From: Candidatus Poribacteria bacterium
GTDB taxonomy: Bacteria > Poribacteria > WGA-4E > DTYX01
Direction: 5' to 3'
Assembly (NCBI GenBank): GCA_012961655.1
Contig: DTYX01000219.1
Span: forward strand, 1-28,708
DNA: 28,708 nt
This document shows positions 456-25,509 of the stretch, in pieces. Positions within the stretch are counted from its first letter, which is position 1. The number at the start of each line of letters is the position of its first letter. The notes beneath the pieces were generated by a model. That model saw only the letters and a list, made by a program, of their open reading frames with translations. It was not told the origin of the DNA and did not search any database. The position numbers and the translations under genes are program-made.

Positions 456-530
456 TGTGCGTATTTTACTAAAGGATATTAAAACATTCAATATTATGAT
501 TCTAAGTGAAAAATTCTCGTCCGGAGATTG

Positions 531-2435
531 ATGATGAAAAAGAAACTACCATTCGGTGAAGAACAACTAAAATCCGAAAATTCTTCCCTCCGTTTTATGC
601 TCGCCGGTCTGTTTTTAGGCGTTGTTTTGATAGTGATAAACTGCTACTGGATAGTCTCATCAGAAAACCGTGTCGTCTGGGAACTAACCGATTTTTCCAT
701 CTTTCCCACCGTTCTCTTTACACTTTTCTCAGTTGCAGGAATCAATCTCCTGTTGAATCGGTTCACGAAAAATGCTTCTCTGAGTCAGACAGAACTTGCG
801 ACCGTTTACATCATGATATCCATCGCAACGGCTCTGGCAGGGCATGATATCATACGCCAGTTGGTTCCGTTGATGGGCAACGCCTTCTGGTACGCGACCC
901 CGGAAAACGAGTGGGAAGATCTTTTTTTCCGCTATATCCCTCGCTGGCTGACTGTAGATGATAAGCGAATCCTGGAGGGCTATTTTGAAGGCGGAACGAC
1001 ATTCTTTCAAGAGAAATACATAAAAGCCTGGTCCGTTCCGATACTCGCCTGGTCTGGCTTTGTAATAGTCGCGCTATTTGTGATGCTCTGCATCAACATT
1101 ATCGTCCGAAGACAGTGGATTGAACATGAGAGATTGAGTTACCCGATTACCGTTTTACCTATAGAGGTCATCAGGAACACATCCGGCCTCTTTTCAAATA
1201 GATTGATGTGGATTGGGTTTTCAGTGGCCTTTGGCATCGAAATAATGGCGGGCATCCATTTCCTTTATCCTGCGGTTCCTTACTTAGATCTCAAGTATGA
1301 ACTCGGCAGGCTGTTCACAGAGAAGCCGTGGAACGCTATCGGATGGCTGCCGATAAATATCTACGCTTTTGCCGTAGGACTTGGATATCTGATGCCGTTG
1401 GATTTATCTCTCTCTTTATGGGTCTTTTACCTGTTTTGGAAAGTGCAACTCGTTTTCTTCAGCATTGTGGGTTGGAAAACGGTGGGCGGCTATCAGGGCG
1501 AACAGCGCGCCGGGGCGTGGATAGGCATCGGTATTCTGGCTCTTTGGACGAGCCGAAAGCACATCAAGCGGGTATTGTTTGGCATCTTTTCAAAACACCC
1601 CATAGACCCATTATCGAAGATGGCTGTCGCTGGTTTCATTATTGGCATGGTAATCATCGTCTTTTTCTGGTCCCATGCGGGATTGGATTATTGGGTGACG
1701 TTGCTGTATTTCGGCATCTACTTTGTTCTCTGCATTGCGATGACTCGAATGAGGGCTGAATTGGGACCGCCGACGCACGAACTCCACAACATACATCCAG
1801 ATAAAATCATGGTCCTGTTTATGGGGTCAAGGAAATTGGGCGCGCTTAATTTGACTAATACCACCCTTCTATCGTGGCTCGCTTATGGCTACCGCTGCCA
1901 TCCCATGCCTCATCAGTTGGAAGGATTTAAGATTGGCTCGTCCTTAAAAATGACTGACAAACGGTTAGTCGTCGCTATGATATTGGCGATGATTGTCGGG
2001 ACGATTACCGCTATCATGGCTCATGTTGTACTCTATCACAAATATCTGTTCGCCCGTTGGGGCATAGGTGATTTTAATCGTTTGCGAAATTGGCTAGCCT
2101 ATCCCGTCAGCACAAATGTGTCGGCGCTAAAGCAGATAGGATTTGGGTTTTTCCTGACGATGCTGCTGATGATACTGAAACGGCGTTTCTTCTGGTGGCC
2201 ATTATATCCGGTGGGATACGCAGTCGGAAGCGGTTGGGCTATCAGTTGGATGTGGTTTTCGATTTTTTTAGGGTGGCTCTCCAAAAGGGTAATCCTTTCC
2301 GGAGGCGGTTTGAAAGCTCATCGAAGCGCCATGCCGCTTCTCTTCGGTTTCATACTGGGACAATTTCTCGCCGGTAGCCTCTGGAGTATCATAGGTATCC
2401 TGCTCACAAAACGAGTCTATACGCTTTTTCCCTAA
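531..2435 (+). CDS. DUF6785/DUF6784-type polytopic membrane protein (OPT-like putative peptide transporter)
   Basis: About 634 aa with many hydrophobic helices. Motifs WIEHERLSYPI, RMRAELGPP, HPMPHQLEGFK and WWPLYPVGY match my recollection of this family. Start is 531 or 534. Confidence 0.75.
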   Translation: MMKKKLPFGEEQLKSENSSLRFMLAGLFLGVVLIVINCYWIVSSENRVVWELTDFSIFPTVLFTLFSVAGINLLLNRFTKNASLSQTELATVYIMISIATALAGHDIIRQLVPLMGNAFWYATPENEWEDLFFRYIPRWLTVDDKRILEGYFEGGTTFFQEKYIKAWSVPILAWSGFVIVALFVMLCINIIVRRQWIEHERLSYPITVLPIEVIRNTSGLFSNRLMWIGFSVAFGIEIMAGIHFLYPAVPYLDLKYELGRLFTEKPWNAIGWLPINIYAFAVGLGYLMPLDLSLSLWVFYLFWKVQLVFFSIVGWKTVGGYQGEQRAGAWIGIGILALWTSRKHIKRVLFGIFSKHPIDPLSKMAVAGFIIGMVIIVFFWSHAGLDYWVTLLYFGIYFVLCIAMTRMRAELGPPTHELHNIHPDKIMVLFMGSRKLGALNLTNTTLLSWLAYGYRCHPMPHQLEGFKIGSSLKMTDKRLVVAMILAMIVGTITAIMAHVVLYHKYLFARWGIGDFNRLRNWLAYPVSTNVSALKQIGFGFFLTMLLMILKRRFFWWPLYPVGYAVGSGWAISWMWFSIFLGWLSKRVILSGGGLKAHRSAMPLLFGFILGQFLAGSLWSIIGILLTKRVYTLFP

Positions 2436-2482: not shown

Positions 2483-3607
2483 TTACCGTTCTCTTGTCAA
2501 ATCAACAAATTCTCTCACTTTCGCCATCGGAGTTAAGGGAGTTACTGGGCTGCCAAGTGACATCACAAATCGGCCGCTGCGACGGCCAACTTCAAGTTGA
2601 CGTTTGATTTCTGCTACCATGACTTCACGACTGCCGTTTTGTAAAATTCCGATGGCATCGACATTGCCGAACAGACATGCCCGACCAGCGACGATTTTAT
2701 CAACTTTATTAATTTCAATGACAAAGTTCTTTTTGCTCTCTTCTAAAGAGATACAGGTTGGATTCATCTGCACCAAATCTTCTAGTCTATCGCTCACGTC
2801 GCCGCAGAAGTAGTAGATGCTTTTCATCCCAAGTCCGTTGATAAGTTCGATTTGACGTTTGACATAGGGCGCGGCGAAGCGGCGAAAGTGTGCGAGCGAA
2901 ATTAGGTCGGCGGAACTGTAACAGTCCTCAACCCAAACGCCGTCGATGCCGATTCGCGCGTATGCTTTCAGTGTTTCCAGCGATGCGATTGTAATTTTCT
3001 CTATCAAGCGTTCCACCCATTCTGGACGTTCAATCAGATTGGTCATCATCTCGTAAAACCCGAAATATGAATGCAGTCCCCAAAACGGCGCGCCGATGCT
3101 TGAGAAGATAAAATATTCATCGCCGAATTCACGGATGACTGCAGAGGCGTAATCCAGACTGCCATCTTTGATTCTATCCATCGCGGGACAGATATCTATC
3201 ATCTGGTCAATATCCTCCATACTATGGACACGACTTGTCGTAATGGGAGTCTGAGTTCCACCCGGCGGCTCTCGGTGAATTGCCCGCTCTTGTCCCGTCT
3301 CTTTGTCTATGATAAATGGCTGTTTACCGCGCACCTTGACCTCATGCTTTTCGCGCCATTCACGTGAATAGCCGCCGTTCGCGGGAATCCAATCTATTGC
3401 CAGTTTTTCTTGCAAATCTTTCGCCACCTGCAGATTTGTTTCAATATCGCCTGTACGAACCGCCCACCAAGGCGCCTCCGTCACCTCTTCCCAATGGTCG
3501 CGGAGAAAAATCCCCAAGTACGGAATGACGACGGGAAATTCCCTCACTTCAACGCCATCCATAACGGCGAACATCTTTTCTTTGCTTGTCATCTTAATAG
3601 CTCCCAT
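2483..3607 (-). CDS. Uroporphyrinogen decarboxylase-like / MtaA-CmuA superfamily TIM-barrel protein (not HemE)
   Basis: 374 aa with GIDGVWVED, YYFCG, CLFGNVD and a C-terminal GRFVMSLGSPVTPLTP. Lacks the HemE RQAGR motif. Confidence 0.8.
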   Translation of the reverse strand: MGAIKMTSKEKMFAVMDGVEVREFPVVIPYLGIFLRDHWEEVTEAPWWAVRTGDIETNLQVAKDLQEKLAIDWIPANGGYSREWREKHEVKVRGKQPFIIDKETGQERAIHREPPGGTQTPITTSRVHSMEDIDQMIDICPAMDRIKDGSLDYASAVIREFGDEYFIFSSIGAPFWGLHSYFGFYEMMTNLIERPEWVERLIEKITIASLETLKAYARIGIDGVWVEDCYSSADLISLAHFRRFAAPYVKRQIELINGLGMKSIYYFCGDVSDRLEDLVQMNPTCISLEESKKNFVIEINKVDKIVAGRACLFGNVDAIGILQNGSREVMVAEIKRQLEVGRRSGRFVMSLGSPVTPLTPMAKVREFVDLTRER

Positions 3608-5937: not shown

Positions 5938-8262
5938 TTAACGAAATATAAGTTCGTAGGTTTGCCCAGCTTGAACATCTATAAGTATCGTTTCTGCTTC
6001 GCCATGATGTAGCAGCAGAACATCCCCTCCAGAGCGTATCTCGGCGATTTGCTGTCCGCTTGGTGGTCGCAGTCGGTGTTTGCCCATGATGCTGGCCTTT
6101 AGCACTGCTGAAGTGGCGCGTCCGTCGCGCCAGGTTAAGTCAACTTCCAAACCGCCGCGAGCGCGCAAACCTCGGAAGTGACCATCTGTCCAAGCCTTTG
6201 GCAAAGCTGGCAGAAAATGAATCTCACCAGCCCCTGATTTTCGAGATGGGTTCGCGCAGTAGCTCTGCAAAAGCATTTCAGCGATACCGGCACAGCCGCC
6301 GAAATTCCCATCAATCTGGAATGGCGGATGGTTGTCAAACAGATTGGGAAGCGTCGATTGTCGCAATAAGGCAAGGACATTTTCGTGAGCCTGTTCGCCA
6401 TCTTCCAAGCGCGCGAAGAAATTGATAATCCATGCTCGGCTCCAGCCGGTGTGTCCGCCGCCGTGTGATAGACGATAATCAATCGTCTTACGCACCGCAT
6501 CAGCTAGTTCAGGTGTGCCGCGCAAGGTAATTTGTCGTCCTGGATGCAGACCGAATAGGTGTGACATATGTCGGTGGCCTGGTTCTGGTTCCTCGAATTC
6601 TTCAGGCCATTCCAAAAGGCGACCGTCACTGCCGATTTTCATTGGCGCAAGACGCGACAGCATATATTCCAATTTCTGGCGGAAGTCCTCGTCGATGCCG
6701 AGAATTTTGCTCGTCTCGATGCAATTGGTGAAAAGGTCGTAGATAATCTGATGGTCCATGGTTGCTCCCATGGTCAGACAAGCGACCTGGCCGTCAGTTG
6801 TGCGGAAGCGATTCTCCGGCGAGGTGGACGGTCCGGAAACCAGATAGCCGCTTTTGGGGTGTTCGACGAGATAATCTACAAAGAACTCCGCCGCCTCTTT
6901 CATAATGGGATAGGCGCGCTTTGCCAGGAATTCGCGGTCGCCGCTGAAAACGTAATGTTCCCACAGATGCTGACAACACCACGCCGCGCCAAAGGGCCAC
7001 ATGCCATACACGGGACTGCCGATGGCACTGGTAAAGTGCCAAGCATCAGTTGTATGGTGTGCGGTAAAACCTCGACAGTTATAGGTTTTCTCCGCCGTAA
7101 TCCTGCCTCTGGGACGCAATGCATCGATTAAATCGAAGAACGGTTCGTGACACTCAGCCAGGTTGCATACTTCGGCGGGCCAGTAGTTCATCTGAATATT
7201 GATGTTGATATGATAATCGGCGTTCCAGGGTGGATTGAGACCGTCCGCCCACAATCCTTGCAAGTTAGCGGGCATAGCGCCGGGACGGGAGGAACTAATC
7301 AGCAAATAGCGGCCGAACTGGAAATACTGGGCGATAAGCTGTGGGTCATCACTGCCTTTCTGCAATGCTGCCAAGCGCTCGTCTGTGGGTAGATTGACCG
7401 TGCCGGATTTGCCCAGACGAAGCTCAACCCTTCTGAACAGACGCTGATGTTCAGCCACGTGTGCCCGACGCAGTTCGGCATAGTTCTTTTTTGCAGCGGA
7501 TGTAAGCTGATTCTCACAAACCGCACGCGGGTCTTCACCGCGGTAGTTAGTCGCGGCAACCAACAGCAGCGTAACGGCGTCGGCATTCTCCACCCGCAAT
7601 CCCTTATCAGCTATCATCAACTTTCCGCCTTCGGGAAGAAGTTTGAGTTGAGCGGAAAATTTCACCCCATTGCCGTCGTTTAAATGTCCGTGTATCACAA
7701 TGAGATTGGGTGCGACTGCTTCGATATTAGCGTCTTTTGGACGGGAAAGGCTGGCGTCGAAGGTAATCATGCCCGGTTTATCGCAATCGAGCCTGACAAC
7801 GATGGCTTGATGGACGGCGGTGGAAAACACCTCACGCGTGAAAGTCGCATCGCCGACGCGATAGTCGATTCGTGCAATTGCGCTGTCCAAGTCGAGTTCA
7901 CGACGGTAATCGGACACCTTCGATTGTGGCTCGAAAAACAATTCTAGGTCGCCAAGTGTCTGGTAGGTGTGAATGCCACCTTCGATACGAAGTCCCATAA
8001 TTTTCTCTTCGACCAGCTTCTCAGCTTCGGCGTATTTGCCTTCGAACAGCAATCGCCTCGCTGCTGGAAGATATTTCGCCGCGCCGGGCTTATCCCGCTC
8101 GATCAGTTTGCCGCTCCACAAACTGTCTTCGTTTAGTTGTATTCGTTCGCGTTGGATACCGCCAAATACCATCGCGCCCAAACGACCGTTGCCGATAGGT
8201 AACGCTTCAACCCACTCCTTAGCCGGCTGGCGATACCAGAGTATCATGTCATCGTTGAACAT
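5938..8262 (-). CDS. GH95 alpha-L-fucosidase-family glycoside hydrolase, no signal peptide
   Basis: 774 aa with ALPIGNGRLGAM, QLNEDSLW, QFGRYLLISSSRPG, PANLQGLW, YHININIQMNYW, HRHMSHL and FQIDGNFG. Confidence 0.93.
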   Translation of the reverse strand: MFNDDMILWYRQPAKEWVEALPIGNGRLGAMVFGGIQRERIQLNEDSLWSGKLIERDKPGAAKYLPAARRLLFEGKYAEAEKLVEEKIMGLRIEGGIHTYQTLGDLELFFEPQSKVSDYRRELDLDSAIARIDYRVGDATFTREVFSTAVHQAIVVRLDCDKPGMITFDASLSRPKDANIEAVAPNLIVIHGHLNDGNGVKFSAQLKLLPEGGKLMIADKGLRVENADAVTLLLVAATNYRGEDPRAVCENQLTSAAKKNYAELRRAHVAEHQRLFRRVELRLGKSGTVNLPTDERLAALQKGSDDPQLIAQYFQFGRYLLISSSRPGAMPANLQGLWADGLNPPWNADYHININIQMNYWPAEVCNLAECHEPFFDLIDALRPRGRITAEKTYNCRGFTAHHTTDAWHFTSAIGSPVYGMWPFGAAWCCQHLWEHYVFSGDREFLAKRAYPIMKEAAEFFVDYLVEHPKSGYLVSGPSTSPENRFRTTDGQVACLTMGATMDHQIIYDLFTNCIETSKILGIDEDFRQKLEYMLSRLAPMKIGSDGRLLEWPEEFEEPEPGHRHMSHLFGLHPGRQITLRGTPELADAVRKTIDYRLSHGGGHTGWSRAWIINFFARLEDGEQAHENVLALLRQSTLPNLFDNHPPFQIDGNFGGCAGIAEMLLQSYCANPSRKSGAGEIHFLPALPKAWTDGHFRGLRARGGLEVDLTWRDGRATSAVLKASIMGKHRLRPPSGQQIAEIRSGGDVLLLHHGEAETILIDVQAGQTYELIFR

Positions 8263-14485: not shown

Positions 14486-15268
14486 ATGAAAAAATCTGTT
14501 TGTCAATTCGCTTCGCGATGGTCTATGATTAGAAAAGTTATGCGGTTTGTAACATTATTCATACTCTTTAGCTTCGCTTTCTTTAGCGTATCGATTATGA
14601 TAGTTGACGCAGACTCAGGAAGTTTTGAAGCTGAAGATTTTGTTGCAAGGAAAGGCAATGATGATGCCTTACGGATTGAAAGTGATGGTTTTGAAGAGAC
14701 TGATGTCGATGGAAATACCTATACGATTTCAAACGCCTCAGGCGGTGCTTTTATAATCACCCCCAATGGTGTAGATGGTTCTGGAACTTGGATTAAGTAT
14801 GAACTCACCGTCCAAGGCGGTAGTTACTACTGGTGGGCTAGAGCTATTGCTCCATCTGTCTCTGACAATTCTGTATTCTGGGCATTCGATATTAGCGATG
14901 CTGAAGCTGATGCTAATCAAGAAGGCACCGTCACCAACATCTTCGACTTTTTTGAAAAAGAGGAACTCAGAAAATTCTACACTACCGATTGGTTCGTGTA
15001 TCCGCTAACGAGTCGGAATGGGCCATGGCCTGGTAGGGAGCTAGACCAATATCCTGCTGACCTACCGGAGACGATTGATGAGCTAATACCCACACCGACG
15101 GCGACAGTGGAGTTAGCTGCCGGCAAACATACGTTGCATATTATCTATCGTGAGGATGGGACATCTATCGACAAGTTTTACTATTCGACAGAACCCACTC
15201 ACCCCACCCCAGTGCAACGGGCAGGCAAGCTGACTGCAACTTGGGCGCAAATTAAACAGGCCAAATAA
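14486..15268 (+). CDS. Secreted beta-sandwich (CBM6/35-like) protein with C-terminal GKLTATWAQIK motif
   Basis: 260 aa. A basic N-terminus and a hydrophobic segment suggest a signal peptide. FEAEDF at the mature start, YYWWAR and GKHTLHIIYREDGTSIDKF resemble galactose-binding-like folds. The tail is HPTPVQRAGKLTATWAQIKQAK. Confidence 0.7.
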   Translation: MKKSVCQFASRWSMIRKVMRFVTLFILFSFAFFSVSIMIVDADSGSFEAEDFVARKGNDDALRIESDGFEETDVDGNTYTISNASGGAFIITPNGVDGSGTWIKYELTVQGGSYYWWARAIAPSVSDNSVFWAFDISDAEADANQEGTVTNIFDFFEKEELRKFYTTDWFVYPLTSRNGPWPGRELDQYPADLPETIDELIPTPTATVELAAGKHTLHIIYREDGTSIDKFYYSTEPTHPTPVQRAGKLTATWAQIKQAK

Positions 15269-16965: not shown

Positions 16966-16998
16966 AGAAACCGAGTTTTTCGGAAAAACTCGGTTTCT
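16966..16998. repeat. AGAAACCGAG palindromic repeat, probable bidirectional terminator
   Basis: Perfect 15-bp arms agaaaccgagttttt and aaaaactcggtttct with a 3-nt loop, lying between convergent genes. Confidence 0.8.
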
Positions 16999-17003
16999 AT
17001 ACG

Positions 17004-19184
17004 CTACACAGACATATGTTCTGTTCTCGCGATTACCTCCGCTTGCATATTCGGATTCAGATGCACGAAATAATCCGAATAGCCGGCTACTCTGACAAGT
17101 AGGTCCTGGTAATTCTCGGGATGTGCTTGCGCGTCGCGCAGGACATCAGCGTTGACGACGTTGACCTGTATCTCGAATCCGCCTCGTCTGAGATAAGTCT
17201 CGATAAGATTTCTGAGACCAGCAAGACCTTCGTCTGTGCTGAGAGCGCTCTGCGAGAATTTCACGTTATGCACCAGCCCGCCGATTGCCTTCTTGTGGTT
17301 CCATTTGGTTGTAGAAAGCACCGATGCAGTGGGCCCTGACTTCTCGCGTCCTTGAGCGGCGCCAGCTCCATCAGCGAGTGGAAATCCGGCGTGCCGTCCA
17401 TCGGGCGTGCCTCCGGTCTCAGAGCCGAAACGTTCATGGACAACCCAGCAGAAGAAGCCAGGGACATAGGAGTGTAGGCCTACGGTATTCGATTCTGTGG
17501 TCTCTTGTAGAAAATGCGCCCACTCGACGGCAAGCCGATCAGGTTCTTCGTTATTGTTGCCGTAGCTCGGAATGCGGTTGACGATACGCTGACGGAGCGC
17601 CTCGCGACCTTCGTAATCGGCTTGAAGTATCTCTCGGAATTCACCAATGGAAAGTTCTTTTGAATCGTAGACGAGATGTTTAATCGCCATGAGTCCATCC
17701 ACCAGATTAGCAAGTCCCACAAAGGAGTTCTCAACCCAATTGTATCGAGCGCCGCCGCGGTCAAAATCCAATCCTCTCTCAAGGCAGTCACTAATGAGAC
17801 AACTCGCCAGCGGGAAACACCCTGTTTCTGCTCGACGATGCCAGACGCCGTCGAGATTTTCAGCGGCGACTCGCACAGTTTCAGCCATGCGCTCCTTAAC
17901 GCGGACGTTAAGCTCATAGAAAGTAACAGGTTCAGGTATCGAGCCATCCGCGACGAAGTCCATCACTTCCAAGAGCGCTTTAGGACAGTTGAAGTAGGGC
18001 GCGGTCACCCACATATTTGAAGCGCCGACTACCTTAATCTCAACGCAGGTTGAGTTCATGTAGTTATAGGAGTCGGCTTTGGAAACGCCGTAGTCGCGCA
18101 GAGCTGAGGCGATAAGCTCATCGTTGAAGAAGGCGGGGTCGCCAATGCCGGTGCTAATCATTCGGCAGGCAAAATCGGTAAGCTCTGATGGCGTTCCCTC
18201 ATGCCACGCCAAACCAACGGTGGGGTACACCAGTTGTGTTGCCATACGGGCAGCCAGACAGAGGTAGGTCAATTCGTTTGTTACATCGTTCCCACTCCCG
18301 TCGCGTCCACCGACCATCACAGATTCCGCGGAGCCAGGCCCAAGAATCATGTTCAGTTGGATATAAAGGCAGCAAATCAATTCGAGCGCTTCATCCCGCG
18401 TGATGCGGCCGGCAGCTAGGTCAGCCTCGTAGAACGGGCGCAAAGTCTGGTCCATTCTGCCGGGAGTCGTAAGCCCGTGGTCTTCGCCAAACCAGAGCGC
18501 GATGATGGTAAGGTACATCAACTGTATCGCCTCATGGAAAGTTTCCGGAGGCTCAGTCGAAACGCGGTGGCAGATATCTGCTAGCCCCCGCCAACGCTTC
18601 GCATTGGCTTCATCGGCTATAACAGCAGCGCTCTCGCATTCGTCAGCAACTCGCCTTGCATATTCGGACAATCCCTGTATCGCGATGTCGCAAGCCTGGT
18701 AAAATGTCTTCTGCTCATCTGTTGTAGAGATGTTCATTCTGGATTTGATTTCCTCGCGGATGCCGCCTACCCCAAGCAGAAAGAGCTTCTCGAAATCGGG
18801 ATGGAAATGTCCTGAGTCGCCGCCGGGATAGGGCGGAATCGTCCTTAGAATCCCCTGAACATCCGCTATCTTCTGAGCCTCTACTGGAGTAGGAGGACGA
18901 AGCTCCGGTCGCCCTACTATGCGCTCGCCCTGAGATAGAGAGATAGGCATTCCCCCAAGTCTCGCCGCTGTCCGCCGAGCCCGCCAAATCAGCCAGTCCT
19001 CGTCGTCCGAATGCTCCGACCAGGATTTGGCGTCAATCAACGGCAATGTCGGAATGCCGTGTATACCCGACCTCTGTTGTTCCAATGCAGCATCTCGCAA
19101 TGCCGCAATCTCCGGCTTCAGCATGAGCGACACTACAGCGTTATTAATTGGAAGCTCTATTGTATTATCAACTTTATGTGCCAT
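17004..19184 (-). CDS. Glycyl radical enzyme (PFL-like superfamily), eliminase-type active site, substrate unknown
   Basis: 726 aa with the C-terminal glycyl motif LLVRVAGYSDYF, a single-Cys loop NSTCVEI, GRMDQ, GGRD, GDPAFFND, YGNN and TPDGR. RBS aaggaga. Confidence 0.92.
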   Translation of the reverse strand: MAHKVDNTIELPINNAVVSLMLKPEIAALRDAALEQQRSGIHGIPTLPLIDAKSWSEHSDDEDWLIWRARRTAARLGGMPISLSQGERIVGRPELRPPTPVEAQKIADVQGILRTIPPYPGGDSGHFHPDFEKLFLLGVGGIREEIKSRMNISTTDEQKTFYQACDIAIQGLSEYARRVADECESAAVIADEANAKRWRGLADICHRVSTEPPETFHEAIQLMYLTIIALWFGEDHGLTTPGRMDQTLRPFYEADLAAGRITRDEALELICCLYIQLNMILGPGSAESVMVGGRDGSGNDVTNELTYLCLAARMATQLVYPTVGLAWHEGTPSELTDFACRMISTGIGDPAFFNDELIASALRDYGVSKADSYNYMNSTCVEIKVVGASNMWVTAPYFNCPKALLEVMDFVADGSIPEPVTFYELNVRVKERMAETVRVAAENLDGVWHRRAETGCFPLASCLISDCLERGLDFDRGGARYNWVENSFVGLANLVDGLMAIKHLVYDSKELSIGEFREILQADYEGREALRQRIVNRIPSYGNNNEEPDRLAVEWAHFLQETTESNTVGLHSYVPGFFCWVVHERFGSETGGTPDGRHAGFPLADGAGAAQGREKSGPTASVLSTTKWNHKKAIGGLVHNVKFSQSALSTDEGLAGLRNLIETYLRRGGFEIQVNVVNADVLRDAQAHPENYQDLLVRVAGYSDYFVHLNPNMQAEVIARTEHMSV

Positions 19185-19216
19185 GATGTTTCTCCTTAGC
19201 CATTATGTTTGGGGTT

Positions 19217-19771
19217 TTAGAGATGCAGTAGTTCCTTGATACATAAATTGCGAAACGCGACCTCTTGCGGTGGGCCTGCATGAAGTTGGAGCCCGATTAA
19301 TCCTGTCCTCGCCCCTTTTGGGTCATTTAGTTCGGCTGTTACAACTCCATTCAGGATTAAAATAATGTAATCCTCGACGGCGCAAATTTGGTATTCATTC
19401 CAATCTTCTGGACGAAGAATCGACTCGATAAGTTGTGGTTTATAATGCACCAGATGCCCTCGTAAAGCTTCTTCGTAGAGCGCCCCCCAGCAGCCGTCGC
19501 CGATGTCCGCCTGATATCCCGCCATATGTCCATCTTCACGGACGATACTTCGGAACTGTATGCCACTATTGTAACCGCGTAGGCGCACTTCGCTGGACAT
19601 AATGAAGTTGGCATATTCCTTCTCTGTCCTCAGAAAATCGTTGTAACTCAGATTTTCAGTAGTACGACCGACCAGAACTCCATCTTCAACTTTCCAGAGA
19701 TTGGCGTCGCCAACCCAACCGGTTAAATCTTTGCCATTAAAAAGCGGTGTAAAACCTGATTTAATGTTCAT
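19217..19771 (-). CDS. DUF1080 (3-keto-glycoside hydrolase/hydratase family), cytoplasmic
   Basis: 184 aa from ATG 19771 (RBS aaggaga) with FTPLFNGKDLTGW, NSGIQFRS, GYQADI, WNEYQI, NGV and GLIGLQLH. No signal peptide. Confidence 0.92.
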   Translation of the reverse strand: MNIKSGFTPLFNGKDLTGWVGDANLWKVEDGVLVGRTTENLSYNDFLRTEKEYANFIMSSEVRLRGYNSGIQFRSIVREDGHMAGYQADIGDGCWGALYEEALRGHLVHYKPQLIESILRPEDWNEYQICAVEDYIILILNGVVTAELNDPKGARTGLIGLQLHAGPPQEVAFRNLCIKELLHL

Positions 19772-19967
19772 TTTACTCTCCTTGAATGGTGATTTGGTAT
19801 TATCTAACACATTTCATTCAAAATTTCAAGATTCTATCCCAGTGAATAAAACACGAGTATTCTGTTCTATAATGTGTAATACGTAATTTTTTCTTTTTAC
19901 GCATTACGTACCTATTTCCTATGTGTATCATTAGAAGATGTAGTTTGTTTTTTAAATCTTCAGCTAC

Positions 19968-21170
19968 CTAAATATTCCATCGCTCATCGATTTCACGTTG
20001 AAAAGCATTAAAGCGTCCTGAGATGACATCTTCCATTCGCACCGCTTGTCCACAGGCGTCGGATTCATATACCGCTTCGCAAATAGCTTGCGCTGCGAAA
20101 GCATCCTCACCGCTTATCTCAGGTTTCTCACCCGTCCTTATGGAGTCAAAGAAATTATAGAAAGCTATCGCCGATGGGTTCGTCATACCGTGCGGGAAGA
20201 ACTTCTCTTTCTCCTTAGCGGTTATGGATTCCATGAACTTATTTTCAAGTTCTGACATCGGCGTATATTCGCCGCTTTTGGATAAGACACCTTCATTGTC
20301 GAGGCTTCCTTCGCTGCCGTAATATCTGACTATGTCCAAAGGCTTCCCCGTTGCGGCGTGCGTCCAGGTAAAAGAAGCTAAAAGCCCGCTTTCAAAAGTC
20401 AGAATCGCGAAAGCGGTATCCTCGACATCTGACGGGACGGGGTTTTTCCAGTTTTGCGTGTCGAGGTAACGTGTTGTCTCGAAATTCCTTATCTTTGCGT
20501 ACACTTCAGCGACATCACCGAAGACCATTCGCAGAAAATCTATGTAATGCACCTCGCCGTCGTGCACCCATCCACCTCCGGACATCAATTTCTGATGCCT
20601 CCAGGGCGTTCCGACCACGACTCCAAGGCTGAACCTGGCGTGCTGATAGAAGAAGAATCTCGGCTCCCCGATAAGCCCCGCTCGATTTATCGCCCAATCG
20701 ATAGTTCGGTTCCCGACGCTACGACGCATCGGTTCAGCACAGGCGAGTATCCTATTGTTCTTTTTCACTGCTTGGAGCATCTTCAATCCAGCCTTTATCG
20801 TTATAGCGAACGGCTTTTCGACCACGACGTTTAATCCCTTGTTCAAAGCGTCAATGCTGGGTTGGTGATGCGCGAAATGAGGAGTGGCGACGCTGACGGC
20901 GTCGAGTTCTTCCTTTTCCAACATCTCCTTATAATCTGTATAGGTGACAGGCTTACTCGATTGAAATGAGCCGATTTTTGCCGCGATGTTTTCAGCCCGT
21001 TCCGAATCCAGGTCAGATGCAGCCGCAACTTCGAAAAGACCGGGTACCGTCTCATATATCTCACCGTAGCTTGTTACATGATGTCCGACTATCATCCCAC
21101 ATCCTATAAGACCTAAACGAATAGGGTTCATAAAATTTGGCGCAAGAAACTCCGTCTGTTCGTCTGACAT
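19968..21170 (-). CDS. Gfo/Idh/MocA family NAD(P)-dependent oxidoreductase
   Basis: Up to 400 aa with the Rossmann motif IRLGLIGCG, VATPHFAH, VVVEKP, GGWVHDGEVHYID and EDTAF. The start may be 21170 or 21131. Confidence 0.92.
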   Translation of the reverse strand: MSDEQTEFLAPNFMNPIRLGLIGCGMIVGHHVTSYGEIYETVPGLFEVAAASDLDSERAENIAAKIGSFQSSKPVTYTDYKEMLEKEELDAVSVATPHFAHHQPSIDALNKGLNVVVEKPFAITIKAGLKMLQAVKKNNRILACAEPMRRSVGNRTIDWAINRAGLIGEPRFFFYQHARFSLGVVVGTPWRHQKLMSGGGWVHDGEVHYIDFLRMVFGDVAEVYAKIRNFETTRYLDTQNWKNPVPSDVEDTAFAILTFESGLLASFTWTHAATGKPLDIVRYYGSEGSLDNEGVLSKSGEYTPMSELENKFMESITAKEKEKFFPHGMTNPSAIAFYNFFDSIRTGEKPEISGEDAFAAQAICEAVYESDACGQAVRMEDVISGRFNAFQREIDERWNI

Positions 21171-21748: not shown

Positions 21749-21777
21749 ATTGTAGCATTGGAAGCAAATATTGTCAA
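21749..21777 (-). promoter_or_regulatory. Sigma70 promoter for the VOC gene and possibly the downstream run
   Basis: Minus strand TTGACA-N17-TACAAT with an extended -10 TG. Confidence 0.8.
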
Positions 21778-24864: not shown

Positions 24865-25509
24865 TTATATACTATAAATCTCCGCTGGTCCAAAAGTATT
24901 TGGAAAATAAGGACGCAGAAATTTTCGTACCTCCCAGCAAAGATTGCATTTCTGAGGGTATCCCCGCCTGGGTTCAAAACCGCGTTCCTTAGCCAATTCA
25001 AGGTAGGCATACGGACCGCGTTCGCATACCATCCTTATCAGTTCATTGTCCGTATGAAATCCTCGCTTCATCCATTCGAGCAGCGGCTTCTCTTTGAGAT
25101 TCCCAATGATGATGCCGCAACAAGTTTGGATATTTGCATACGGGTCAATGTGAATCTCCCACATCTGGTGTGGGTCAAACTCGGTCCGGCAACTTCCATC
25201 TTCTGAACTGCCGCGCCATAGTCCATCGCCCGCCAACTCTTCTATCGGACGGTCGGGATAGAAACGCGCCAGCGTCTCCCCCGCCCTGCCGATTAAACGA
25301 GGTGAATGTCTTTGACTGTATTCCGCCAGCCGCGACTCATCACGCCCGATTCGGCGGAGTTCGGAAAGTTCTTCCAACGACAAATCCCCGGCGGCGACAT
25401 TCTCACAGCCAAAAATTTCGACCGCCCATTTGAACGCTCGCAACTGGCGGAGAAACTCAACGCCATCCTTCAGAATAACGCATACATCTGGTTGCTTTTC
25501 GGATGTCAT
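24865..25509 (-). pseudogene. Probable C-terminal fragment of a radical SAM protein (SPASM/twitch-like Cys-rich tail)
   Basis: 214 aa with HIDPYANIQTCCGIIIGN and KCNLCWEVR...FP..FGP..IY. There is no CxxxCxxC, and an in-frame TAA lies just upstream of the ATG. Confidence 0.55.

Follow-up and report, generated by a model that had tools for sequence, protein, structure and literature searches.

Glycyl radical enzymes (GREs) carry out chemically difficult anaerobic reactions, and the newly assigned clades have each given a new pathway, as for choline, hydroxyproline, isethionate and anhydro-sugars. The eliminases and isomerases among them all keep a Cys-x-Glu motif (2026 review, PMC13450708). In glycerol dehydratase (GD), Glu435 deprotonates the C1 hydroxyl and His164 is proposed to protonate the leaving hydroxyl; the C-S lyases bind sulfonate through an Arg/Gln/Arg triad (PMC13450708), which is reported to be absent from other GREs. 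The paralog pairs YbiW/PflD and HpyG/HpzG act on epimers (PMC13450708). Here, we analysed a GRE gene at positions 17004-19184 of a 28,708-nt contig (DTYX01000219.1; hereafter the window) from a metagenome-assembled genome (MAG) of Candidatus Poribacteria, obtained from a hydrothermal vent metagenome.

GD (C. butyricum, 1r8w) and 1,2-propanediol dehydratase (PD; R. inulinivorans, 5i2a/5i2g; 9rco) are the top sequence matches of the encoded protein (E ~1e-92). They resemble it in the ten-stranded barrel (Foldseek TM-score 0.85-0.87), in RVAGYS, in Cys-Val-Glu and in a His aligned with their His164/His166, and by analogy the protein likely follows the same radical 1,2-elimination logic. In contrast to both, it is only ~26% identical, is 60-110 residues shorter, carries Ser-Thr instead of Gly before the catalytic Cys, has its substrate-binding residues replaced and one pocket loop deleted, and lacks adjacent activase, microcompartment or diol-pathway genes. 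The GRE isomerases YbiW and PflD, which cleave the C-O bond of 1,5-anhydroglucitol-6-phosphate and 1,5-anhydromannitol-6-phosphate (8id7, 8id0, 8yjo), share C-x-E and G-H with it and provide a precedent for sugar substrates and for epimer-acting paralog pairs, but they are 30-32% identical and fall outside its clade, and no phosphotransferase system or sugar-phosphate genes lie near the window gene. CutC (5fau, 5a0u, 9f3w) is equally similar in fold (TM-score 0.86-0.87), scores similarly in sequence and has a C-V-E loop; the window protein differs in having a His where CutC has Asp216, and in the absence of a cut-type microcompartment context.

Our best explanation, to which we give a probability of roughly 0.6, is that the gene encodes a functional GRE from a large, uncharacterised clade of compact enzymes (about 680-740 aa) nested in the PFL2/eliminase part of the superfamily. 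Activated in trans, it would act as a C-O-cleaving eliminase (dehydratase) or a ring-opening isomerase, probably on a neutral, carbohydrate-derived substrate other than glycerol, 1,2-propanediol, hydroxyproline, choline, a sulfonate or an anhydro-hexitol phosphate. The analysis demonstrates an intact gene, its fold and family placement, the conserved catalytic residues, an activase in the genome and the lack of a conserved operon; the type of reaction, the kind of substrate and the pairing with an activase are inferred.

Gene, fold and catalytic residues

The gene is an intact open reading frame (ORF) of 726 aa that reads from 19184 to 17004, and the plus-strand frame across the same interval contains many stops. 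Its features are as follows, the codon coordinates of the three motifs having been confirmed by translation.

17004..19184, minus strand: GRE gene (P0001) of the compact S-T-C-V-E clade (ORF translation, Pfam, AlphaFold2 model, Foldseek)
17076..17093, minus strand: glycyl radical motif RVAGYS, residues 698-703 (translation; aligned to RVAGYS of GD, PD, CutC and HypD)
18039..18053, minus strand: Cys loop S378-T379-C380-V381-E382 (translation; aligned to GD C433/E435)
18807..18818, minus strand: D123-S124-G125-H126 (translation; alignments to 1r8w, 5i2a and 8id0)
19191..19197, minus strand: Shine-Dalgarno-like AAGGAGA, 6 nt 5' of the ATG at 19184 (sequence read)

Pfam detects a pyruvate formate-lyase (PFL)-like domain (PF02901, E 5e-108, residues 123-565) and a Gly_radical domain (PF01228, E 5e-30), values that put GRE identity far beyond chance. 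An AlphaFold2 model built from 42 orthologs (pLDDT 86, pTM 0.90) matched about 50 GRE chains in Foldseek with TM-scores of 0.84-0.87 at 24-27% identity, all eliminases and isomerases alike. Pfam, model and Foldseek agree on the ten-stranded barrel, and C380 aligns in sequence with GD C433; as judged from its Pfam matches and predicted fold, the protein is a genuine GRE of the PFL-like branch. It is 40-120 residues shorter than every solved eliminase (765-850 aa). Alignments to solved structures place the shortening at the N-terminus and in internal loops; for example, 12-13 residues are missing immediately ahead of the barrel strand that ends in VGG.

The 1r8w alignment equates G701, C380, E382 and H126 with GD G763, C433, E435 and H164, which makes G701 the predicted radical site (codon 17082-17084), C380 the predicted thiyl radical Cys and E382 the predicted general base. 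All four residues are invariant across the 42 orthologs (64-88% identity), as are R698, A700, Y702 and S703 in the radical motif, the whole of N377-K384, and D123. Ser-Thr precedes the single catalytic Cys at the place where Gly is usual, and V-E follows it. C380-V381-E382 thus supplies the Cys-x-Glu of GRE 1,2-eliminases and isomerases, and H126, aligned with the G-H of GD, PD and PflD, supplies the His that C-O-cleaving members have at the GD His164 position. Both are invariant, in line with a C-O-cleaving eliminase or isomerase that works on a hydroxylated substrate. Further invariants of the sub-clade are H128, E234, H236, S378, T379, K384, W392, Y397, C579, H583 and R613, and its distinguishing motifs are GGD-x-GH-F-H, E-D-H-G, S-T-C-V-E-I-K and F-C-W-x-x-H.

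No characterised family claims the protein on sequence. In a PDB search, PD, CutC, GD, PflD, HypD and YbiW scored alike (E 1e-93 to 1e-81), and the best identities to PDB entries and E. coli GREs were 24-32% (BLASTP: PflD 32%, YbiW 30%). Every equivalog model scored below its cut-off: HypD (NF043068) 326.5 bits against 1100, HpsG and HpfG (NF048011 and NF048009) 322 and 314 against 1000 each, the PflD type (NF007437) 320 against 1109, CutC (TIGR04394) 297 against 1050, indoleacetate decarboxylase 266 against 1100, HPA decarboxylase 249 against 1150 and PFL (TIGR01255) 96.6 against 994. The broad PFL2-3 subfamily model TIGR01774 gave 407.8 against 678.2.

A clade of compact glycyl radical enzymes

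Trees were built with FastTree (140 rows) and with IQ-TREE in its 'quick' mode (75 rows, rooted on E. coli PflB); they are quick trees without bootstraps, of which only well-supported nodes were used. The labelled references were E. coli YbiW, PflD and PflB, and the representative clusters carried no informative names. In both trees the protein belongs to a clade of 7 rows (support 100), which is nested in one of 20-25 rows (support 99). The IQ-TREE tree sets these within a 34-row compact clade without Gly before the Cys (support 99), itself part of a 55-row compact clade (support 97) that contains every full-length GRE paralog of this genome. E. coli YbiW (Cys loop GCIE) and PflD (GCVE) fall outside the 55-row clade, among the long G-C forms, and PflB forms a long outgroup branch.

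A search of 1.84 billion 50%-identity representatives gave 1957 matches at E<1e-30, the nearest of which are almost all 680-740 aa long. Among the 133 nearest representative clusters, 50 lack the usual Gly at the two positions that precede the Cys; these have a median length of 722 aa, compared with 779 aa in clusters of the G-C type. The exact S-T-C occurs in 30 of 140 aligned rows. More than 120 clusters at 90% identity share at least 64% identity with the protein and are named, if at all, 'PFL family protein' or 'formate C-acetyltransferase'; the closest named homolog, at 90% identity, bears the label Candidatus Poribacteria. We found nothing relevant in the literature on glycyl radical and Poribacteria, and no compact or S-T-C type GRE among the enzymes of the 2026 review (PMC13450708).

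The original prediction, made from the letters alone, had described a compact 726-aa enzyme with an intact RVAGYS, a DSGH motif and an STCVE loop in which a single Cys is followed by V-E, where such loops usually read GCVE. All of these are present, on an ORF that we could add lies on the minus strand, and GCVE is indeed the loop of GD, PD, CutC and HypD in the alignments. Its further view of the enzyme as unclassified is borne out by equivalog scores mostly ~700 bits short, by identities of at most ~32% and by the separate, well-supported clade; tight clustering with a characterised GRE was looked for and not found in these comparisons. The claim of a new GRE subclass stands insofar as the clade is separate and uncharacterised, and falls short on novelty, since hundreds of its members are already in databases under the label 'PFL family protein'.

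A one-genome-per-species scan found 79 loci, all in MAGs, from at least 10 phyla. By record titles, the orthologs belong to Poribacteria, Planctomycetota (Brocadiia, Phycisphaerae, Planctomycetaceae), Armatimonadota, Lentisphaerae/Victivallales, Kiritimatiellota, Verrucomicrobiia, Chloroflexi/Anaerolineae, Spirochaetia, Gemmatimonadetes, Omnitrophota, Sumerlaeia and Myxococcales. Their identity of 52-85% across so many phyla implies strong purifying selection. Within its own phylum, the ortholog is present in 8 of 176 species and any GRE in 16; seven of the eight carry 7-16 Gly_radical matches (11 in this genome) and one holds 3. The two largest genera of the phylum (40 and 65 species) have no GREs. 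This distribution suggests that a GRE-rich anaerobic lifestyle is confined to few lineages of the phylum.

At 53.6% G+C (56.5% at third codon positions), the gene exceeds every other gene of the window, the genome mean being 45.2%; a GH95 gene at 5938-8262 comes second with 52.8%. The high value may reflect lateral acquisition or amino-acid composition and, together with the patchy distribution, would be compatible with lateral transfer. In at least one of the nearest GRE representatives, Ala replaces the radical Gly (R-A-A-Y), and in one the Gly loop ends unusually; they may be aminoacyl-radical-enzyme variants such as PMC11528403 describes.

The sub-clade combines several properties: it is found only in uncultured bacteria, which belong to many phyla, its conservation is strong, no studied GRE is as short and its Cys loop is altered. 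On present evidence, the protein is one more GRE of unassigned substrate and would not surprise specialists. Assignment of its substrate would bear on the radical chemistry of anaerobic glycan degraders in vents, sediments and comparable habitats, and could provide a compact scaffold for biocatalysis.

Activation, substrate pocket and proposed reaction

No GRE activase gene lies in the window. Elsewhere in the genome, contigs C641 and C321 each encode an activase that passes the TIGR02494 cut-off. The GRE ortholog of three other organisms has an activase directly beside it, and with these three the C641 protein (C641:71-985, with C-x3-C-x2-C at residue 24) shares 74%, 68% and 67% identity, whereas the C321 protein reaches only ~41%. 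Because C641 is the best match to the ortholog-adjacent activases, it is likely the cognate activase, acting in trans. One paralog lies at the end of contig C692, and we found no sequence overlap by which this end could be joined to the start of C641.

The genome holds ten further GRE paralogs or fragments (two on C692 and others on C573, C635, C526, C45, C381, C1058, C172 and C990), whose mutual identity is only 25-44%. Cys loops across the genome's GREs read STCVE, GGCTE, GGCIE, NGCSQ, IGCYE, IGCNE, DGCSE, GGCME and DGCWE, the NGCSQ paralog lacking the Glu, and Gly-loop variants include RVGGYS, RVTGWS, RVWGYS and RMGGWC. The MAG is 79% complete and has 11 GREs but only two detected activases, so that paralogs probably share an activase. 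Several orthologs stand next to a second GRE paralog and share one activase with it. In several relatives the neighbouring paralog is of the GGCTE type, which recalls the epimer-specific pairs YbiW/PflD and HpyG/HpzG.

Pocket residues were placed through the 1r8w alignment. The residues that bind the substrate in GD are H281, S282, Y339, D447 and Y640. They correspond to G237, L238, A286 (beside the loop deletion), T394 and F578, all invariant or nearly so in the family, and GD S642, the position of HypD T645, corresponds to W580. At the triad positions of IslA/IseG, mapped indirectly through GD, the protein has G122, H126 and F578, and it has no Arg at positions mapped to anion-binding sites. 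Two aromatics (F578, W580) next to the small A286, G237, L238 and T394, with no mapped Arg, suggest a neutral and probably larger substrate. Taken together with the glycan-degrading hosts, the pocket suggests that this substrate is carbohydrate-derived.

The original prediction had called the active site polyol-eliminase-like and had proposed a hydroxylated substrate such as a sugar or polyol. The first description holds for the catalytic residues and fails for the substrate residues, the glycerol/propanediol-binding set of GD being replaced throughout. The second agrees with the invariant C-x-E and His as far as a hydroxylated substrate is concerned; the step to a sugar or polyol is one we also infer, and no conserved neighbourhood backs it.

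We propose the following mechanism. A radical-SAM activase, with C641:71-985 as the best candidate, would take a hydrogen atom from G701, and the resulting glycyl radical would generate a thiyl radical on C380. C380 would then abstract hydrogen from the carbinol carbon of the substrate, while E382 would deprotonate the hydroxyl of that carbon and H126 would protonate a vicinal oxygen leaving group, either a hydroxyl or an ether oxygen. The C-O bond would break, and the product radical would recover the hydrogen from C380.

The hosts of the sub-clade carry 7-16 GRE paralogs yet few activases. A wider and tentative reading, which we would not yet favour, is that the compact S/x-T-C GREs of anaerobic glycan degraders form a battery of radical sugar enzymes served by one or two shared activases. 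Each would cleave a C-O bond of a different unphosphorylated monosaccharide or keto-sugar without O2, by dehydration, by deoxygenation or by opening a ring or an ether. If true, the sub-clade would constitute a new GRE reaction or substrate class, and the battery would add a further layer to the anaerobic breakdown of carbohydrates in uncultured phyla.

Genomic neighbourhood and alternative explanations

The GRE gene is the last of four genes on the same strand, preceded by VOC, GFO/IDH/MocA and DUF1080 genes. The surrounding features are:

19217..19810, minus strand: DUF1080 / 3-keto-disaccharide hydrolase family (PF06439, E 4e-36), ending 32 nt before the GRE start
19968..21170, minus strand: GFO/IDH/MocA oxidoreductase (Pfam), possible operon member, with ~52 paralogous loci in the genome
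21335..21706, minus strand: VOC/glyoxalase-fold protein (PF00903), first gene of the possible four-gene operon
21749..21777, minus strand: sigma-70-like promoter upstream of the VOC gene (TTGACA, 17-nt spacer, TACAAT with TG; consensus scan, 11/12)
16966..16998, minus strand: terminator-like 33-nt perfect palindrome with a 15-bp stem, then a T-run (consensus scan), 6 nt after the GRE stop

Given the gap of 32 nt, the DUF1080 and GRE genes are probably co-transcribed. Promoter-like sites in the region are no commoner than in shuffled sequence, so the 11/12 match is suggestive only. To compare neighbourhoods, we took those of the 79 loci with at least 52% identity (67) together with the window, giving 68, and called and clustered the ±6 neighbouring ORFs.

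Several observations weigh against the reaction and substrate that we propose. No neighbour family is conserved, the commonest occurring at only 10 of the 68 ortholog loci, and the VOC-GFO-DUF1080-GRE arrangement is absent at orthologs of 88%, 83%, 82%, 79% and 78% identity, which have unrelated neighbours. The families that do recur (URO-D, GFO, DUF6785) have ~50 copies per genome, so that their frequency near the GRE equals chance. With Ser-Thr before the Cys, where Gly is usual, the loop could differ in geometry and chemistry, and the AlphaFold2 confidence is lower around it (64-73 at residues 370-400). The pocket residues were placed by sequence alignment only. Finally, the one metatranscriptome of the source study has no RNA contig over 16900-21900, which does not prove absence of expression.

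After URO-D (10/68), the most frequent neighbours were a second GRE paralog and 2-hydroxyacid dehydrogenases (7 each), followed by GFO, SDR, sulfatase and large FGE-domain proteins (6 each); an activase was near the ortholog in only 3 loci. Carbohydrate-active neighbours recur without being conserved, namely GH95/GH29 fucosidases, GH2, GFO, xylose-isomerase-like TIM barrels, ThuA and SDRs. One ortholog of 73% identity is flanked by GH95 and GH29 fucosidases and a UxuA-like protein, and one of 71% identity lies beside a divergent GFO+ThuA pair, an SDR and GMC oxidoreductases. In four Anaerolineae loci (L072, L079, L080, L083), a xylose-isomerase-like TIM barrel and a protein of 421 aa, whose match to URO-D is only faint (E 0.001), flank the ortholog in permuted gene order, an arrangement that may simply be inherited among related genomes. 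The common theme is carbohydrate without pointing to a particular sugar, and the links are weak and lineage-restricted.

The neighbourhood gives rise to the strongest alternative, in which the GRE catalyses the final step of a local keto-glycoside pathway: VOC, GFO and DUF1080 proteins, with ThuA, would oxidise C3 of a glycoside and convert the keto-sugar further, and the GRE would dehydrate or ring-open the sugar that results. The four genes on one strand with short gaps, the promoter-like site upstream and the terminator-like hairpin downstream are in line with it, as is a ThuA gene 3.6 kb upstream; in tblastn with window proteins, ThuA and DUF1080 each have only ~2 loci in the genome. The GFO+ThuA pair and the SDR and GMC oxidoreductases at the 71% ortholog, and the TIM barrel directly beside the GRE in Anaerolineae, point in the same direction. 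However, among the 68 loci DUF1080 and ThuA stand beside the GRE solely in this window, GFO at 6/68 is at or below chance, and next to the orthologs of 88%, 83% and 82% identity all neighbours differ. The published keto-glycoside pathway also includes a xylose-isomerase-like lyase, which the operon lacks. We consider this explanation unlikely in general and a possibility for this genome alone. Farther off in the window lie an arylmalonate-decarboxylase-like protein and the GH95 fucosidase.

Cleavage of a C-N, C-S or sulfate-ester bond, as in CutC or IslA/IseG/HpsG, on an amine, a sulfonate or a sulfated sugar is less probable still. C-x-E is common to these lyases, T394 occupies a position behind the Cys loop that is small and polar in CutC as well, sulfatases and FGE-domain proteins each occur near 6 of 68 orthologs, and an MttB-family gene lies near one. 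Sulfatases are, however, very numerous in such genomes, so that 6/68 is unlikely to be meaningful, and the invariant His occupies the CutC Asp position. The CutC, HpsG and HpfG equivalogs reach 297-322 bits where 1000-1050 are needed, and by the indirect mapping G122, H126 and F578 would stand at the positions of the sulfonate triad.

A divergent glycerol or 1,2-propanediol dehydratase of known function appears very improbable. GD 1r8w and PD 5i2a and 9rco are the top matches in sequence and fold and share the catalytic Cys, Glu and His; fucosidases, moreover, are nearby in two contexts, and fucose breakdown yields propanediol. Against this, the identity in fold alignments is only 24-27% and the scores are level with those of CutC, HypD and PflD, which indicates no preferential kinship; TIGR01774 reaches 408 of the 678 bits required. 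The GD residues H281, S282, Y339, D447 and Y640 have become invariant G, L, A, T and F, the 12-13 residue loop is deleted, and the window has no genes for a microcompartment shell, 1,3-propanediol dehydrogenase or propanol dehydrogenase. A pyruvate formate-lyase, the name that homologs carry in databases and the sole argument for it, can be dismissed: the single Cys followed by V-E is not the PFL Cys-Cys pair, TIGR01255 gives 97 bits against 994, PFL structures match the C-terminal third only, and PflB is a long outgroup branch.

Three families considered as partners of the GRE were rejected. URO-D at 10/68 seemed enriched, and the 421-aa URO-D-like protein of Anaerolineae added to this, but this genome has 51 matches and four relatives have 36-74 each, so that ~13% of loci are expected by chance to have one family member within ±7 kb. 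DUF6785 lies near the GRE in several relatives, yet has ~58 loci in the genome, and GFO/IDH/MocA has 6/68 against ~52 genome loci, at or below chance. The window's own URO-D-family gene is at 2483-3607 (minus strand), and the expansion of this family is far above the need for haem synthesis. A DUF6785+DUF6784 protein of 635 aa is encoded at 528-2435 (plus strand); its ~58 loci in the 5.56-Mb MAG share 28-46% identity, and in relatives, copies of this massively expanded paralog family are often near GREs, ABC/FtsX genes and glycan genes.

The palindrome at 16966-16998 separates the convergent GRE and nitroreductase genes. It is a dispersed repeat, with 39 copies in the MAG when up to 4 mismatches are allowed, and in the source metagenome it shows a depth spike of 284 against ~10, with many different flanks and loose ends. 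It looks like a REP-like element and may also serve as a bidirectional terminator. Two further ORFs, at 24865-25509 (minus strand, 214 aa) and 14486-15268 (plus strand, 260 aa), have no Pfam match and are called as genes in the ENA copy of the contig.

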